Of a DNA stretch of 64,000 nt, positions 2,507 to 30,667 are shown piece after piece (position 1 is the stretch's first letter; every line of letters starts with the position of its first letter). Below the pieces are notes generated by a model. It made no database searches. It was given only the letters and a program-made list of their open reading frames with translations, and had not been told where the DNA came from. The position numbers and the translations under genes are program-made. The stretch is taken from the sequence record GQ981382, one strand, 5' to 3'. Source of the DNA: Shigella phage SP18.

Positions 2507-3355
2507 TTAATAAACGTAATCGTATATAATACCAGCTTCTAAAGCGGTGCGATGAATAATTCGACCATTACGAGATTCTTGTACATCAACCTCTGGATAG
2601 TCGGTAATCATTTTTTGAAGGGTATATCGGTGCAAATAATATGGGCTATCTGGAGCATCAGTTTTCCAGTCTTGTCCAGCAAGAGTCATTTTCTGAATTT
2701 CGTCCATAACCCACCAACCACACCAGATATAAGCTGAATTACGAACTGGCAGCGGATGAACGTAAGGTAATTCGCCATCTGGAACTGGTGCGACTTTAGC
2801 CGTGACTGTTACATTACCAGTTTTTGTGACAGTCACCGGGTCATAATCAGTCGCCGAAACCACAACAGAAACTTCAATAACCTGTGAACCTTCAGCGCTT
2901 GTATCGATTACCAGAGTATCCGTGGTGCCAACTACAGGAGAACCGTCTTTCTTCCAAGAATAGGCAAAAGTAGCATCACCAGGTGCGCCAACTACATCCG
3001 CTTTAAAAGAAGCCGGAGTACCTTCCTGAACATTAATTGATTCTGGGGTTAATGTCACAGAAACATCAGACATAGTTTTATTCTGGATAGTTAAAGTCGT
3101 CTCAGCTTCAGCTGTTTCTGGTTCGCCGTCCGCTGGTGTAGTTGTTGCAACAACTTTAATAGTCTTGCTACCTGCTGGACCAACAGCAACATAATCCATT
3201 GCAGCAGTCACAGAAGATTGAGGAACACCATCAACGGTCCAGACAAATGATTCGGTACCTTCAGCTGCAGCACCGGAACCGGTTGCAGTGAAATTGGTTG
3301 TTGCTCCAATAACGGCCGTAGCCGCCAAAGGAGCAATATCTACGGTATAAGCCAT
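2507..3355 (-). CDS. hoc: Hoc, highly immunogenic outer capsid protein (Ig-like domains)
   Basis: 282 aa; C-terminal LPYVHPLP..AYIWCGWWVMDEIQKMT..YYLHRYTLQKM..PEVDVQESRNG..IH.TALE.GIIY matches the T4 Hoc capsid-binding domain; Ig-like repeats upstream. Confidence 0.88.
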   Translation of the reverse strand: MAYTVDIAPLAATAVIGATTNFTATGSGAAAEGTESFVWTVDGVPQSSVTAAMDYVAVGPAGSKTIKVVATTTPADGEPETAEAETTLTIQNKTMSDVSVTLTPESINVQEGTPASFKADVVGAPGDATFAYSWKKDGSPVVGTTDTLVIDTSAEGSQVIEVSVVVSATDYDPVTVTKTGNVTVTAKVAPVPDGELPYVHPLPVRNSAYIWCGWWVMDEIQKMTLAGQDWKTDAPDSPYYLHRYTLQKMITDYPEVDVQESRNGRIIHRTALEAGIIYDYVY

Positions 3356-4030: not shown

Positions 4031-4048
4031 GATGAACCTCGGTTAGTG

Positions 4049-4056
4049 TATAAATA
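4049..4056 (+). promoter_or_regulatory. late promoter TATAAATA upstream of uvsW
   Basis: Exact T4 late -10 consensus about 30 nt before the uvsW ATG. Confidence 0.6.
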
Positions 4057-4084
4057 TAGATATATTTATTACCTTGGAATCATC

Positions 4085-5584
4085 ATGGATATTAAAATCA
4101 ACTTTCTAAATTTTAGTCACGTGCATGTTGAATGTGAAGATGGAATCTTCTACGAACTCCGTGATTACTTCAGCTTCGAAGCTGAAAACTATCGCTTCAA
4201 TCCAAAGTTCAAGCAGGGAGTTTGGGACGGACGAATCCGCCTCCTGGATTACAATCGTAAATTACCATACGGTTTGGTTAATCAAATTAAAAAGTTCGCT
4301 GACCAGTTTGGTTATTCATTCTGGATTGACCCGCAAATCACCGAGAAAGAAGAAATCTCTCGCGAAGAATTCGACAAATGGGTTGAGTCAAAAGAAATCT
4401 ATTCAGGCAATACCAAGATAACGCCTCATTGGTATCAATCTGACGCCGTATATGACGGTCTGGTCAACAGAAGAAAGATTCTGAACTTACCTACGTCTGC
4501 AGGTAAAAGCCTCATCCAGGCGCTTCTGGCGCGATATTATCTCGAGAACTATGAAGGCAAGGTGCTTATCCTTGTTCCTACAACCGCGCTTGTTGACCAG
4601 ATGATTAATGACTTTGTTGATTATCGGCTTTTCCCTCGTGAAGCTTGTCTGGGTATTCGTTCCGGGACTAAACGCGATTCTGATGCGATGATTTATGTAT
4701 CGACTTATCAGACGGCTGTAAAACAACCTAAAGAATGGTTTGGCCAGTTTGGCCAGTTTATGAATGACGAATGCCACATGGCTACAGGTAAATCGATTTC
4801 GACGGTTATCGAAGGCCTTACGAATTGCATGTTTAAATTTGGTCTGTCAGGTTCACTCCGTGATGGCAAAGCCAACCTTATGCAATATATGGGTCTGTTT
4901 GGTGATATCTTTAAACCAGTATCAACATCCAAATTGATGGAAGATGGCCAGGTTACTGACCTTAAAATAAATAGTATTTTCCTTCGTTACCCTGATGAAT
5001 TCACTGTTAAAATGAAAGGTAAAACTTATCAGGATGAAATTAAGGTAATTACAAAAGCTACACGCCGAAATAAATGGGTAACAAATCTTGCTCTCAAGCT
5101 TGCTAAAAAAGATGAAAACGTCTTTTTGATGTTTAAGAATATCGAGCACGGTAAATCGATGTTTGAAATGCTTAAGGAAGCTGGTCATGAGAAAGTGTAT
5201 TATGTTTCCGGGGAAGTTGATACCGAAACCCGTAATGCTCTGAAGGTCATGGCAGAGAATGGAAAGGGAATTATTGTTGTAGCTTCATACGGTGTATTCT
5301 CAACGGGGATTTCCGTTAAAAACCTCCATCATATTATTTTCGCTCACCCGGTCAAGTCAAAGGTAATTGTACTCCAGACAATTGGTCGTGTGCTTCGAAA
5401 ACATGAATCCAAATCACAAGCAAACGTTTTTGATATCGTTGATGATATGGGTGTTAAACCTAAATCAGCAAATGCTAAAAAGAAATATGTTCATCTTAAC
5501 TTTGCCCTAAAACATGGCCTTGAACGTATACAACGATATGCTGATGAACGTTTTAACTATGTAATTAAACAGGTGGAAATTTGA
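4085..5584 (+). CDS. uvsW: UvsW DNA/RNA helicase (SF2, DExH)
   Basis: N-terminus MDIKINF...; Walker A LPTSAGKS, DExH motif MNDECH; colinear with T4 UvsW. Start placed at the first ATG downstream of the late promoter. Confidence 0.93.
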   Translation: MDIKINFLNFSHVHVECEDGIFYELRDYFSFEAENYRFNPKFKQGVWDGRIRLLDYNRKLPYGLVNQIKKFADQFGYSFWIDPQITEKEEISREEFDKWVESKEIYSGNTKITPHWYQSDAVYDGLVNRRKILNLPTSAGKSLIQALLARYYLENYEGKVLILVPTTALVDQMINDFVDYRLFPREACLGIRSGTKRDSDAMIYVSTYQTAVKQPKEWFGQFGQFMNDECHMATGKSISTVIEGLTNCMFKFGLSGSLRDGKANLMQYMGLFGDIFKPVSTSKLMEDGQVTDLKINSIFLRYPDEFTVKMKGKTYQDEIKVITKATRRNKWVTNLALKLAKKDENVFLMFKNIEHGKSMFEMLKEAGHEKVYYVSGEVDTETRNALKVMAENGKGIIVVASYGVFSTGISVKNLHHIIFAHPVKSKVIVLQTIGRVLRKHESKSQANVFDIVDDMGVKPKSANAKKKYVHLNFALKHGLERIQRYADERFNYVIKQVEI

Positions 5585-6272
5585 ATTATCAAAAAATATA
5601 TGATGATTTAATTGGGAGTCGAAAGGCTTCCAAACCGATTGGATACACGGAATCTCACCATATCATTCCAGAATGTATGGGTGGACCTGATACACAAGAA
5701 AACAGAGTCAACCTTACTCCGGAAGAACATTTCGTTGCGCATAAATTATTGGCCAAAATTCATCCTAATCATTACGGTCTTATAAAGGCCGTCATTGCTA
5801 TGGGTATGAGCTCTCGAACACATCAACGACAATTCAATAAATCGTATGGATGGGAGCGTAGACAAATGTCAGTTCTTCAAACTGGTGAAGGCAATCCTTT
5901 TTATGGTAAACACCATACTGAAGAACATAAAGAATATATGAGCCAATTATTAAAGGGTCGCAAAATAACTTGGGCTGATAAAATATCCGCGACAAAGAAA
6001 GCGAATCCGTATAAATACTCTCAAGCACAATGTCAAGCTATATCTGAAAGAAATAAAGGTGAAGGTAATTGGATGTATGGTAAATCACATACACCAGAAG
6101 CATCAAAGAAAATTTCAGATAAAGCAAAAGAACGTTATAAGGACCCATCCAAAAATCCTGCCGCTAAGAAAGTGGTTTTAAACGGGATTGAATATGGTTC
6201 GATGAAGCAAGCTTCTGTAGCAACGGGGCTTTCTTTATATAAAATCAGAAATTTAATTAAACAGGTGGAAAT
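5562..6272 (+). mobile_element. HNH homing-endonuclease cassette flanked by 19 bp direct repeats (taattaaacaggtggaaat at 5562-5580 and 6254-6272)
   Basis: The last 19 nt of uvsW, including an AGGTGG Shine-Dalgarno, are repeated exactly at the 3' end of the HNH ORF, restoring the ribosome-binding site of uvsW.1. Confidence 0.6.
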
Positions 6273-6276
6273 ATAA
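5581..6276 (+). CDS. HNH homing endonuclease (HNH plus NUMOD-like repeats), free-standing
   Basis: 231 aa; ESHHIIPECMGGPDTQENRVNLTPEEHFVAHKL HNH motif; repeated GNPFYGKHHTEEHK / NWMYGKSHTPEASKK repeats; TTG start overlapping the uvsW stop; paralog of the ORF at 28806-29531. Confidence 0.85.
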   Translation: MNYQKIYDDLIGSRKASKPIGYTESHHIIPECMGGPDTQENRVNLTPEEHFVAHKLLAKIHPNHYGLIKAVIAMGMSSRTHQRQFNKSYGWERRQMSVLQTGEGNPFYGKHHTEEHKEYMSQLLKGRKITWADKISATKKANPYKYSQAQCQAISERNKGEGNWMYGKSHTPEASKKISDKAKERYKDPSKNPAAKKVVLNGIEYGSMKQASVATGLSLYKIRNLIKQVEI

Positions 6277-6503
6277 TGAAATCCTTCGAAGAAATTATGT
6301 ACGAAGCATCAATTGAAGGCTTTATGGCTAAGATTGGCTCCTGTCAGACCATGGACGGTCTGAAGGAGTTGGAAGGCTATTATAAGAAACGCAGCAAAGA
6401 AGCTGAACTGAAAGATTCCGATGATATCAGTGTTCGTGACGCTCTTGCCGGTAAACGCGCCGAGCTTGAGGATATGGACGACGACGAAGACGAAGATTTC
6501 TAA
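6276..6503 (+). CDS. uvsW.1: UvsW.1-like small acidic protein
   Basis: 75 aa, acidic C-terminal tail DMDDDEDEDF; immediately downstream of uvsW as in T4. Confidence 0.7.
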   Translation: MKSFEEIMYEASIEGFMAKIGSCQTMDGLKELEGYYKKRSKEAELKDSDDISVRDALAGKRAELEDMDDDEDEDF

Positions 6504-6507
6504 ATAA

Positions 6508-6536
6508 AAAGGCCCCAACCAAAAGGAAGGGGCAAA
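6508..6536. terminator. hairpin (GCCCC...GGGGC) plus T-run on minus strand
   Basis: GC stem between convergent uvsW.1 and the small minus-strand ORF; 12 nt loop, so weaker than the other terminators. Confidence 0.4.
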
Positions 6537-6561
6537 ACCAAAAAATGGTTAACAACACTAG

Positions 6562-6729
6562 CTAAATTAAAAGTTGGGTCTCGTTCAGTTGCTCTTCTGT
6601 ATTTTCCGTAACTGGCAAACTCTGAACATAATTATAACAGGCGCCCGGATGCACCGGACCTTGGTCTGTATCCACAACCAATGCAGAATCGATTGGAGTT
6701 TTACAGACAACACAAATCTTATCTGACAT
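6562..6729 (-). CDS. small Cys-containing protein (~55 aa), uvsY.-2-like position
   Basis: Hand-translated ORF MSDKICVVCKTPIDS... with a GAGGAG Shine-Dalgarno 7 nt upstream; below the 60 aa track cutoff; coordinates approximate. Confidence 0.5.
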   Translation of the reverse strand: MSDKICVVCKTPIDSALVVDTDQGPVHPGACYNYVQSLPVTENTEEQLNETQLLI

Positions 6730-6868
6730 GATTGTCTCCTCAGTTAAACTTACATATCTATTTAGTGCTCTTCATAATAGCAGCACGAGCTTTCATCTCA
6801 TTAACAATTTCAGTTATTCGGTTTGCAGAGATAACCATCTCGTCAAGAATCTTACTAATATTTTTCAT

Positions 6869-7102
6869 TTAATTTTCCTTAAAGTATCTCATACCGGTAT
6901 CTATCCCCATATTGTGAGAATAGAACGCATCATCGATGTATCCTGCAAATTTACCTTTAACATAGATAACATCTTCACCACAAGGGTGGTCAGCGCAGAT
7001 ACGAATATCCGCACGATTCAATTTCCATTCCTTCATCATATACTTAATTTCTTCTTCGAACTCTTCGTCTTGGTTAAACGCATCGTCGATAGAATATCGC
7101 AT
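6869..7102 (-). CDS. UvsY.-1-like small protein
   Basis: 77 aa; ATG overlaps the uvsY stop (TAATG), indicating translational coupling. Confidence 0.65.
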   Translation of the reverse strand: MRYSIDDAFNQDEEFEEEIKYMMKEWKLNRADIRICADHPCGEDVIYVKGKFAGYIDDAFYSHNMGIDTGMRYFKEN

Positions 7103-7536
7103 TACTTGCCTGCCTCGAATTGTCTTATTTCTAACATATGTTTAAGTGCGAAACTTCGTGACTTAACACCATCTAATGCAGCGCTACAGAAGTCCTGGAG
7201 TAGTGCCCAATACTGAATTGAAGTATCAATCTTCAGTATGTTTGAATCTGCGGCCATGACTGTTTTCAATTCTGACTTCTCGTATACATCCATGCATACT
7301 TCTTCCCCTGGGTCACCCCTTCCTGTATAATGGTCTAGCCGTTTTTTCAGTGCAGTTTTCTTCTGAATCTCAAGACGCATTATTTCTTTCTTGCAGTTGG
7401 TATACAATCTCAACCATTTGCTATGCAACAAAACGTTGTTTTGTGTTTCATATTGAAGTTGCGTACCATCAATTTTTAAATCTGCATCCAACTCATCCTG
7501 AAAGACTTCTAACTTATATTCAATCTCTGTTTTCAT
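7102..7536 (-). CDS. uvsY: UvsY recombination mediator protein
   Basis: Translation LQYE..NNV.L.SKWL...KKE.LRLE.QKK.ALK.RLD.Y.GRGD...YEKSE.KTV..AD...LK.DTS.QYW..L.DFCS.ALD..KSR.FA.KH....FEAGK matches T4 UvsY; start taken at the in-frame ATG downstream of the promoter. Confidence 0.9.
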   Translation of the reverse strand: MKTEIEYKLEVFQDELDADLKIDGTQLQYETQNNVLLHSKWLRLYTNCKKEIMRLEIQKKTALKKRLDHYTGRGDPGEEVCMDVYEKSELKTVMAADSNILKIDTSIQYWALLQDFCSAALDGVKSRSFALKHMLEIRQFEAGK

Positions 7537-7564
7537 AATGTATCCAATGTAAGGGTCTAGAACC

Positions 7565-7590
7565 ATTATACAGCCATAAAATTAAAGCAT
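7565..7590 (-). promoter_or_regulatory. middle-promoter-like site upstream of uvsY (MotA box aaTGCTTTA, 12 bp, TATAAT); candidate oriF-like region
   Basis: Minus strand reads aaTGCTTTAattttatggctgTATAATggttctagaccc. In T4 the uvsY middle promoter is part of replication origin oriF. Confidence 0.5.
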
Positions 7591-7979
7591 TAACCGTTTT
7601 GACTTAACTGAATCCTGATTTGTTCGAGGGTGTCAGGGTCATCAACAATGCTAAACTGAACCGTTACGATAATGGAGTTATCATCATACATAGGGACAAC
7701 TGCAACCCGTAGATTGCTTATCCGTGGTTCGAAGTTCCGCACAGCGGAGACGATGTTGCGTTTAATGGTATCTGTGATTAATGGAGTGATATTCTCAAAA
7801 AGCTGATTACTTATATCACATCCAAATTCAGGCATAAAAGGCCTTGACCCTTTTCTTGTGGTGATTATTCCCAGAAGGCTGTTCTTAACAGACCTTGCGC
7901 CGGTTACTTTAGCAACGTCTTTATCCCAACTCATTGACAAGTCAGGAGACACATCGCTATACATTTTGTTTATATTCAT
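7590..7979 (-). CDS. 25: baseplate wedge subunit gp25
   Basis: 129 aa; SLLGIITTRKGSRPF.PEFGCD.S.QLFEN.TPL motif matches T4 gp25. Confidence 0.92.
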   Translation of the reverse strand: MNINKMYSDVSPDLSMSWDKDVAKVTGARSVKNSLLGIITTRKGSRPFMPEFGCDISNQLFENITPLITDTIKRNIVSAVRNFEPRISNLRVAVVPMYDDNSIIVTVQFSIVDDPDTLEQIRIQLSQNG

Positions 7980-8603
7980 TTACATAAACTTAAAGAATTC
8001 TTTAAGCCCCTTAATTACATGGACAGAATGCGCTCCACACTCGCAAGAGATAGGAATAGCCATTTGGACCTGTGGCTTGAGAAGTTCTTCCGTTAGTGCA
8101 TTTATATCATCGAGGGTAATTGCATTGTACAGGTCCTCGATTTCGGCTTCATTTAAGTCATCAACAACGATGCGCTCACCGCCTTCCGTGATAATATATT
8201 CGATACAACAAGCAATCATTTTTCCTTTATCGCCATCTTCAAACAGCCCAGGATAACGGAATTTAATTTTAAACGCCCCGAAATCACGAATAACTTCAGA
8301 CTCATCCACGATGCTTGCGCGACTTATAGTCACAGGAATATCTTGTTCCTTTCCGCACTCACATATCCATGTATGCTCGACGTTAACAGCTCCGAGACTA
8401 TTTGCCCAGAGATTAATAAGAAGCAGTTCAGCTTCCTGTTTGTTTAACCCTTTAGCATCAGTGCATTTATTAAGCAGTTCAATTATTGCAGGTTCCATAC
8501 GCTTTTCTAATTTTGCTTGAAGCAAATCTTTGTATTCGCGCAAGGTAAAAGCCCTACAATTTATAGTTTTATTTTTAATTTGGACAATAAATTCATAAGT
8601 CAT
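7980..8603 (-). CDS. 26: baseplate hub subunit gp26
   Basis: About 207 aa from the ATG with an AAGGAG Shine-Dalgarno; synteny 25-26-51 as in T4. Confidence 0.8.
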   Translation of the reverse strand: MTYEFIVQIKNKTINCRAFTLREYKDLLQAKLEKRMEPAIIELLNKCTDAKGLNKQEAELLLINLWANSLGAVNVEHTWICECGKEQDIPVTISRASIVDESEVIRDFGAFKIKFRYPGLFEDGDKGKMIACCIEYIITEGGERIVVDDLNEAEIEDLYNAITLDDINALTEELLKPQVQMAIPISCECGAHSVHVIKGLKEFFKFM

Positions 8604-8620
8604 AATTTGCTCCTTTACTG

Positions 8621-8632
8621 TATTTATAAATA
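8621..8632. promoter_or_regulatory. palindromic divergent late promoter (TATTTATAAATA) serving gp26 (-) and gp51 (+)
   Basis: TATAAATA reads on both strands within a 12 bp palindrome lying between the divergent gene 26 and gene 51 starts. Confidence 0.6.
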
Positions 8633-8656
8633 TCAATAAAGATAAAAGGGGATTCT

Positions 8657-9409
8657 ATGGCCAATATCGTAAGATGCGAAATGCCAGACGGAGTTCATCG
8701 TTTCAAACCGTTTACAGTCGCTGATTACCGTGATTTACTGCTTGTGCGAAACGACATGAACAACAAACCCGTCGAAGAACAAAAACAATTATTAGACGAA
8801 CTGTTGGAAGATTATTTTGGAGAGTATCCGAAAGCATGGAGGCCATACATATTCTTGAAGGTATTCACTTCCTCTATCGGTAAGACAAAAGTCCCGGTAG
8901 CGTTCGAATGTCAAAAATGTAAAAAGACAAAGCAGACTTTGTTTAATATGAGTCAAGGGCCATTGATAAATCCAACAATGGAAACTGCGGGGATAAAAAT
9001 ACAATTTAAGTTCCCCGAAGTGGAATATAAAGATAAGTCGGAGCTTGTTCTAAACACCATCCAGACTGTCGAAGACTCAGAACAAAAGTACAATTGGGAA
9101 GACCTTCCTGAAGAAACGAAGATGCAGGTTATTGATGCAATTGATATAGAGAGTCTCGAAGAGCTCCTTAAGAAAATGCATTCAGTTTATATTCCATTTA
9201 CATATGGTTGCTGCGAAAAACACAAAACCGAATATACAGACTTGATTGATGTCTTTAAGCTTATCCTTAACCCGGATGAAGTCTTTGTATTTTATCAAAT
9301 TAACCACTTGCTGGTAAAGAACCAATATACGCTCGATAGCATCATGCACATGATTCCCATCGAACGAGGTATTGCTTTATCGTTAGTTGAGAAGGACTTG
9401 AAGAAATGA
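8657..9409 (+). CDS. 51: baseplate hub assembly catalyst gp51
   Basis: 250 aa; position and size as T4 gp51; Cys-rich (CQKCKK...CCEKH). Confidence 0.8.

Positions 9410-28805: not shown

Positions 28806-30667
<1,862 letters not shown>

Follow-up and report, generated by a model that had tools for sequence, protein, structure and literature searches.

Free-standing homing endonucleases of phage T4 cut hundreds of base pairs away from their own genes (PMC2988022). Among them, MobE is an HNH nicking enzyme encoded by a promoterless gene whose start overlaps the nrdA stop codon, implying translational coupling; the enzyme nicks T2 nrdB at nucleotides 122-126, within a polymorphic patch beside a conserved block, and is inherited together with co-converted flanks (PMC2790892, PMC2988022). 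In the "intronless homing" of SegF, SegG and SegE, a free-standing gene lies beside its target gene, co-conversion extends between the cut site and the endonuclease gene, and a resistant allele is linked to that gene, with SegE directed against uvsW (PMC2988022). The locus described here is found in Shigella phage SP18 (GQ981382), of which a stretch of 64,000 nucleotides, referred to as the window, was analyzed; it comprises a homing endonuclease gene (HEG) of 231 codons situated between the helicase gene uvsW and its neighbor uvsW.1. Another system for comparison is the T4 MobA / gene 60 bypass cassette, which Bonocora et al. (PNAS, 2011) are said to have described as an HNH Mob gene inserted within a host gene, with extra travelling sequence that reportedly keeps the host product functional and protects the carrier.

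The element in the window is likely a Mob-type HEG residing within uvsW, about 20 bp from its 3' end, accompanied by a linked tract of foreign uvsW sequence, expressed by coupling to uvsW and homing from that tract. It resembles MobE in its protein, which is homologous, belongs to the same PHROG and shares the N-terminal motif MNY...HH..P..GG..N..LT.EEH..AH; in its gene, which starts on the stop codon of an upstream essential gene and has no promoter of its own; and in the clustering of carrier/non-carrier polymorphisms in a neighboring gene, about 100-200 bp away (PMC2790892, PMC2988022). It differs from MobE in its location (uvsW/uvsW.1 rather than nrdA/nrdB), its TTG start, a putative target that lies upstream in the preceding gene rather than downstream, a C-terminus captured from the host-gene tail together with a junction duplication that keeps the coupled start of uvsW.1, and the lack of a detectable internal terminator. 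A plus-strand search in and before the HEG for sigma-70 promoters and internal terminators, in which T4 middle and late promoters were not modelled, returned none, with counts at shuffle expectation. Unlike SegF, SegG and SegE, which are GIY-YIG enzymes, the present HEG belongs to the HNH type; segE, which in T4 occupies the inh-uvsW interval upstream of uvsW, is missing from the window. In contrast to the MobA / gene 60 arrangement, uvsW remains in one piece and needs no translational bypass, the change being confined to replacement and duplication of its last codons.

The window represents a T-even phage of the genus Gaprivervirus, and over 4046-6600 it shares 98% identity with Escherichia phages UPEC01 and DK-13; the name uvsW is carried by the annotations of VR20 and VR7. 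The features of the locus, with positions counted from the first letter of the window, are as follows.

4085 to 5584, plus strand: uvsW helicase gene, 499 amino acids (Pfam UvsW_N 1e-39, ResIII 9e-18, Helicase_C 1e-9)
5375 to 5398, plus strand: codons of helicase motif VI (QTIGRVLR, amino acids 431-438), directly 5' of the divergent tract
5410 to 5560, plus strand: HEG-linked foreign uvsW 3' tract of about 150 bp, from haplotype comparison
5562 to 5580, plus strand: left copy of the 19-bp repeat, encoding the UvsW C-terminus IKQVEI, with AGGTGG at 5571-5576, 4 nt 5' of the HEG TTG
5581 to 6276, plus strand: HEG, predicted free-standing Mob-type HNH endonuclease, 231 amino acids, intact open reading frame (ORF)
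5656 to 5661 (H26/H27), 5701 to 5703 (N41), 5728 to 5730 (H50) and 5740 to 5742 (H54), plus strand: predicted HNH motif residues, from an alignment of 43 homologues
About 5878 to 5952 and about 6034 to 6117, plus strand: NUMOD3 modules (Pfam)
About 6166 to 6267, plus strand: C-terminal helix-turn-helix-like module
6254 to 6272, plus strand: right copy of the 19-bp repeat, which is the original uvsW tail and supplies the last HEG codons, with AGGTGG at 6263-6268, 7 nt 5' of the uvsW.1 ATG
6276 to 6503, plus strand: uvsW.1, 75 amino acids (PF11637, 1.6e-24)

The insertion reshapes the last seven codons and the stop of uvsW. The TTG start of the HEG (5581-5583) overlaps the uvsW stop TGA (5582-5584) and, because a stop codon in the HEG frame lies at 5566-5568, is the sole possible start upstream of Met33. 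At the other end, the final A of the HEG stop TAA (6274-6276) is also the A of the uvsW.1 ATG at 6276, and this TAATG overlap is the same as that between uvsW and uvsW.1 in HEG-free relatives. The 19-mer TAATTAAACAGGTGGAAAT has exactly two sites in the window (5562-5580 and 6254-6272) with up to three mismatches tolerated, against 0.05 matches expected from the shuffle control, in which none of 100 shuffles gave two. A repeat search lengthens it to 22 nt with 21/22 identical positions (5559-5580 and 6251-6272), at a spacing of 692 bp. Since UvsW and the HEG product both terminate in IKQVEI followed by a stop, both repeat copies share a reading frame. The original prediction had proposed the exact recurrence of these 19 nt, a TTG-initiated ORF of 231 codons overlapping the uvsW stop, the absence of an endonuclease gene between uvsW and uvsW.1 in T4, and the retention by uvsW.1 of its original ribosome-binding site. 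All of these points were borne out: the repeat has no third site in the window, the ORF coordinates agree, T4 has nothing between the two genes and carries the GIY-YIG gene segE upstream of uvsW, and the right copy reproduces the native Shine-Dalgarno sequence and TAATG; in Dhakavirus and Tequatrovirus, too, the right copy matches the native tail of HEG-free relatives.

Judged by profile searches and homologue alignment, the ORF is a free-standing homing endonuclease of the T4 Mob type (HNH plus NUMOD3) and a member of a known family. The ORF matched PHROG 655 ("homing endonuclease", 6.9e-57), PHROG 12434 ("HNH endonuclease", 9.4e-7) and, in two stretches, Pfam NUMOD3 (6.7e-19), and tblastn located relatives in 1103 phage records, including T4 MobE (T4T mobE; 33.9% identity, 86% of the query covered, E 4e-19). 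An alignment of 43 homologues shows M1, Y3, E24, H27, P30, G35, N41, L45, E49, H50, H54 and L57 to be invariant, with conservation of at least 90% for H26; the resulting pattern (HH...N...H...H) is, as read from this alignment, the beta-beta-alpha-metal motif. A 42-nt internal direct repeat (5884-5925 and 6058-6099, 71% identity) corresponds to the two NUMOD3 modules (GEGNPFYGKHHTEE and GEGNWMYGKSHTPE). PDB searches with the single sequence gave only sub-threshold HNH matches (E 0.06-0.2), so a family profile was needed; this matched the McrA HNH domain (6ghc, 2.7e-5), as well as Cas8-HNH and group II maturase HNH, and also the I-TevI DNA-binding domain (1i3j, 1.4e-3), for which Foldseek returned a probability of 0.96. 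The AlphaFold2 (AF2) model (pLDDT 86) has strand-strand-helix-helix elements at C-terminal residues 198-229.

The gene has already been labelled "homing endonuclease" in several GenBank records. UPEC01 labels it "group I intron endonuclease", but nothing beyond the name points to an intron: an Rfam scan of 5000-6800 returned neither a group I intron nor any other match at E < 0.1. With no intron detectable, and with start and stop codons of its own and a complete ORF on either side, the HEG is free-standing. The form found in the window, hereafter HEG-A, was intact in all six copies examined, each a 696-nt ORF with a TTG start, and the ratio of nonsynonymous to synonymous divergence (dN/dS) is 0.03-0.06 between Gaprivervirus copies and reaches 0.07 in the comparison with the Dhakavirus orthologue. 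The 32 codons before Met33 change mainly synonymously, indicating that translation starts at the TTG. The annotations of UPEC01 and pEC-M719-6WT.2 (5632-6231 in retrieved locus coordinates) begin the HEG at the internal Met33, and by this alignment they strip 32 conserved N-terminal residues, including the predicted catalytic His26/His27. A second Mob-type HNH paralogue is present elsewhere in the window (28806-29531, plus strand; 36% identical to the uvsW-site HEG, tblastn E 4e-33), on the strand opposite to its neighbors, with its 3' end overlapping that of a 301-amino-acid minus-strand ORF (29445-30350) that resembles polynucleotide kinase.

The state of the site without the HEG can be observed directly within the genus. 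Twenty Gaprivervirus genomes (90-97% identity) align to the locus in two pieces with a span of 1857-1869 bp versus 2555, and thus lack the insert; the HEG is carried by the window and four database genomes, constituting a presence/absence polymorphism at a fixed site. The junctions of 212, VR20, UPEC07, VR7, VR25 and TH57 have a single tail copy ending in TATGTAATTAAACAGGTGGAAATATAATGAAA, with the uvsW TAA overlapping the uvsW.1 ATG. The right repeat copy of the window is identical to the single-copy junction of phages 212, VR20 and VR7, whose clean junctions define an insert of 692 bp. Alignment with insert-free relatives, named in the original prediction as a check, therefore yielded one copy of the 19-mer at a clean junction, and two tail copies occur in none of the HEG-free genomes.

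The HEG is also associated with a change in the sequence to its left. Window and 212 differ at 3 of 125 positions over 5285-5409 and at 30 of 151 over 5410-5560; the corresponding mismatches are 8/125 and 34/151 for the Dhakavirus pair UP19 and JS98, and 0/125 and 35/151 for HY03 and T4. Elsewhere, 212 and the window are almost identical, with 0-2 mismatches in each 100 bp through most of uvsW and none across 6520-8900. The synonymous divergence (dS) between them is 1.24 in the last 59 uvsW codons versus 0.059 for the remainder of the gene, and the sequence on the right side of the insert is essentially free of excess divergence. When 5405-5580 was used as the query, all five genomes carrying HEG-A were at least 96% identical (the window counted, at 100% by definition), while the HEG-free genomes fell at 79.5-83.5% in 17 of 20, at 90.3% in TH57 and EAWsc9, which are mosaics of both tract haplotypes, and at 96.6% in VR7. 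The haplotype thus accompanies the HEG in 5 of 5 carriers versus 1 of 20 HEG-free genomes (Fisher, 5/0 vs 1/19, about 1e-4, for genomes that are phylogenetically non-independent). In both Gaprivervirus and Dhakavirus, W to F, A to G and K to R changes in the UvsW C-terminus go with HEG-A, and the two genera differ by 17% in the tract and by 20-21% in HEG-A, similar distances that are consistent with travel as one unit. From these comparisons, the tract looks like a co-conversion tract and probably represents a self-immune allele. The original prediction had described a precisely delimited cassette, a description that needs amending, as the HEG travels together with a diverged stretch of uvsW 3' coding sequence, roughly 150 bp long, lying left of the repeat.

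The HEG-free phage VR7 is informative in this regard. It differs from its sister VR25 almost exclusively within 5417-5563 (32/151 in the tract); VR25 has the HEG-free haplotype at the lineage-typical distance from 212 (9/151), and VR7 has the HEG-linked one. Because the difference is limited to the tract, VR7 must have gained it secondarily, and the possibility that VR7 represents the ancestral source of the tract is ruled out by the same comparison. Either the HEG was gained and then lost precisely between the repeats, or conversion was resolved in the left tail copy. In three comparisons (window vs 212, VR7 vs VR25, HY03 vs T4), the tract has its left edge at 5410-5425, and the motif VI block directly 5' of it is conserved in all aligned genomes, with or without the HEG. 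By analogy with the MobE model (PMC2790892), this block may be a candidate anchor for endonuclease binding, and a conserved anchor beside a polymorphic nicking site would fit the arrangement of motif VI and tract.

Related HEGs occupy the uvsW/uvsW.1 junction in three genera: Gaprivervirus, Dhakavirus and Tequatrovirus. The occupants of the junction, compared with the window HEG, are listed below.

Dhakavirus UP19, PSD2002 and ESCO10: orthologue, 79-80% nucleotide identity
Tequatrovirus HY03 and many others (ACG-C40, UFV-AREG1): 57% amino acid identity
Klebsiella phages Roth78 and similar: 61% amino acid identity
Aeromonas phage AsFcp_2: 33% amino acid identity
Gaprivervirus P479 and YenM_P8: HEG-B, 261 amino acids, 28% amino acid identity

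These proteins form one family, ranging from 84% to 28% identity, and in every occupied lineage examined the HEG start lies on the uvsW stop in an NTGA overlap. Wherever a HEG-free comparator exists, the right tail copy is the native tail, that of UP19 being equal to the JS98 junction and that of HY03 to the T4 junction. The left copy, which is the functional uvsW tail, has diverged, reading VMKEVQI in UP19, VMKEVKL in HY03 and VVKHVEL in P479, each followed by the stop. Identity between the two copies is 19/19 in the five Gaprivervirus HEG-A genomes only, and falls to 14/19 in P479, 14/19 in UP19 and 11/19 in HY03; the more distant Roth78 and AsFcp_2 have no comparable repeat. HEG-B (P479 5536-6321 and YenM_P8 2036-2821 in retrieved locus coordinates) occupies the point equivalent to window position 5581. 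It begins with ATG, differs from HEG-A in the C-terminal half and is accompanied by a diverged uvsW tract of its own, a longer one that starts at about 5344. The first 33 nt or so of HEG-A and HEG-B are near-identical in DNA, which suggests that cassettes may be swapped through recombination in the conserved N-terminus of the HEG. A search of the available literature collection found no description of a HEG at uvsW/uvsW.1.

Two further length polymorphisms were observed around the locus. A segment of about 300 bp at 6819-7118, between uvsY.-2 and uvsY and containing small minus-strand ORFs (e.g., 6869-7102), is shared by the window, UPEC01, DK-13, 212 and UPEC07 and is absent or replaced in VR20, VR7 and VR25 (57-99 mismatches or gaps per 100 columns in a sliding comparison), representing another indel polymorphism near the HEG site. 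In addition, the Hoc-like head decoration gene hoc (2507-3355, minus strand) measures 849 nt in the window, DK-13 and 212 and 1134 nt in UPEC01, VR20, P479 and UPEC07, which suggests that the number of Ig-like domains varies among near-identical phages.

The age of the insertion has to be considered separately from the exactness of the repeat. Within Gaprivervirus, the divergence between HEG-A copies reaches 6.1% (TH40; dS 0.27), more than is seen in the flanking genes, and the tract lies about 20% from the resident allele. With HEG-A divergence of up to 6%, and with the Dhakavirus orthologue and the tract both about 20% away, the cassette is not demonstrably recent; the presumption of recency in the original prediction thus finds no support, the exact repeat being peculiar to this lineage. 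The 22 nt adjoining the HEG show zero difference from the native tail despite the 20%-diverged tract, for which the estimated chance is about 1% (0.8^22). Most likely, the left copy has been homogenized to the native tail (for example, with the copy 692 bp away as the donor in gene conversion) or held by coding or Shine-Dalgarno constraint, and the exact repeat is better read as secondary homogenization or constraint. Through such a repeat, the HEG could also be lost without a scar, leaving VR7-like genomes.

Based on these observations, the arrangement and a proposed mode of spread are as follows. The order along the DNA is a foreign, recoded uvsW 3' segment (5410-5560), a substitute uvsW tail whose TGA lies within TTGA, the HEG body and the native tail. 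The displaced native tail is read in frame by the HEG as its own last six to seven codons and stop, and still gives uvsW.1 its Shine-Dalgarno sequence and TAATG overlap. Transcription would presumably proceed from uvsW promoters, and translation of the HEG would probably be weak and coupled to uvsW termination, as the start is TTG and the Shine-Dalgarno sequence is only 4 nt away. In a mixed infection, the enzyme may nick or cut HEG-free uvsW within the tract or at its left edge, by analogy with MobE, SegF and SegG; this edge lies just 3' of the motif VI codons and some 150-180 bp before the HEG. Repair by recombination with the HEG-carrying genome would then copy the tract together with the HEG, and the carrier would be shielded from its own enzyme by the diverged tract. 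Target position, carrier immunity and mobility are all inferred. Given the intact ORFs, the dN/dS of 0.03-0.07 and the patchy distribution, it is plausible that the HEG is still mobile.

Two candidate features of expression were rejected. An RNA hairpin hiding the HEG ribosome-binding site, as in Aeh1 mobE, received no support, since folding of 5535-5625 gave a z-score of -0.78 and the right and empty junctions gave z > 0; significant RNA structure was found by folding at neither ribosome-binding site. Production of a uvsW-HEG fusion by -1 frameshifting at AAATTTG was likewise set aside, as the heptamer lies outside the uvsW zero frame and P479 lacks it.

Several observations weigh against the proposed homing model. 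The Pfam HNH model (PF01844) alone remained below threshold (E 0.065; 13.8 bits vs a cut-off of 21.4), so that the HNH assignment rests on family-level evidence; the HNH identity put forward in the original prediction therefore stands by PHROG 655, NUMOD3 and the family-profile match to McrA HNH, and not by that model. The tail duplication is not recognizable in Roth78 (6/19) and is thus not universal. The left edge of the tract is less sharp for HEG-B (5344) and Dhakavirus, and the most conserved block of the tract (5462-5494) barely differs between HEG-carrying and HEG-free Gaprivervirus alleles. The putative target, moreover, is deduced only from polymorphism in a few genome pairs that are phylogenetically non-independent.

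Other explanations of the same locus were also considered. It is unlikely that the enzyme recognizes the intact uvsW/uvsW.1 junction and cuts no more than about 25 bp from where the HEG is inserted, with the left tract merely hitchhiking. Such a break, with minimal rightward resection, would be expected to produce a sharp right boundary, and rightward conversion does end at the first base of the native tail in every genus examined. However, an occupied genome still has the complete native right half attached to 19-23 bp of the native left half-site (6254-6290), so that most of a junction-centered site of typical size would survive and expose the carrier to cleavage by its own enzyme. Cleavage so close to the gene would also depart from the characterized free-standing T4 enzymes, which cut hundreds of base pairs from their own genes (PMC2988022), and the recurrence of the left edge at 5410-5425 is a further point against it.

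Quite unlikely, too, is a resident endonuclease that is no longer mobile and is either decaying or kept for another role, such as competitor exclusion. The deep divergence among copies, the persistence of the gene in two genera and the weak start signals (TTG, 4 nt from the Shine-Dalgarno sequence) would all suit such a gene. Against it stand strong purifying selection (dN/dS 0.03-0.07), the absence of disruption in any of the six copies, patchy presence among genomes that are 96-98% identical, and the TH57 and EAWsc9 mosaics and the VR7 configuration, which point to ongoing exchange at the site. Marker exclusion and homing are the same molecular activity.

We regard as very doubtful a recent de novo insertion with a 19-bp duplication resembling a target-site duplication, in which the mobile unit would be the span between the repeats only. 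This would account for the 19/19 repeat in all five Gaprivervirus genomes with HEG-A and for the fact that deleting one copy plus the intervening DNA recreates the empty site of 212, VR20 and VR7 exactly. It leaves unexplained the linkage of the HEG to about 150 bp of 20%-diverged uvsW outside the repeats, and it conflicts with HEG-A differences of up to 6% within the genus (dS 0.27) and with a Dhakavirus orthologue at 79-80% identity whose repeat is 14/19. It is also established that HNH homing endonucleases move by recombinational repair, and target-site duplications are not known for them (PMC2988022). Finally, a chance match in AT-rich sequence is rejected, since two matches with up to three mismatches arose in none of 100 shuffles, single-copy relatives exist and both copies are in frame.

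An extension of the preferred model, in which a Mob-type HEG homes from the linked tract, can be offered only tentatively and is possible rather than probable. The immune allele, the HEG and the captured tail might together constitute a three-part "self-sufficient" cassette directed at the motif VI edge as its target, and the repeat, rather than being a mere scar, might act as a switch by which the HEG is deleted scarlessly or skipped in repair. This would yield alleles that lack the HEG yet are immune to cleavage, as in VR7, and mosaics such as TH57 and EAWsc9, and the repeat would thereby shape the element's cycle of gain, loss and resistance in natural T-even populations.

The interest of this locus is modest, as it offers a clean model and does not reveal a new mechanism or system; for few free-standing phage homing endonucleases is the insertion architecture understood, and this locus adds a well-resolved natural example. 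The details it adds are the in-frame capture of a host tail, the linkage of a foreign uvsW 3' tract in three genera and a natural tract-only allele in VR7, and it corrects the Met33-truncated annotations of UPEC01 and pEC-M719-6WT.2. A single genus offers occupied, empty and "tract-only" (VR7) alleles, with orthologous cassettes in two other genera. The predicted target, at the uvsW 3' end just after motif VI, would be cheaply testable, as isolated phages exist for crosses. More generally, the locus shows how a HEG can reside harmlessly in the end of a helicase gene, by supplying a replacement tail and stop, borrowing its own C-terminus from the displaced tail and leaving the coupled start of uvsW.1 intact.

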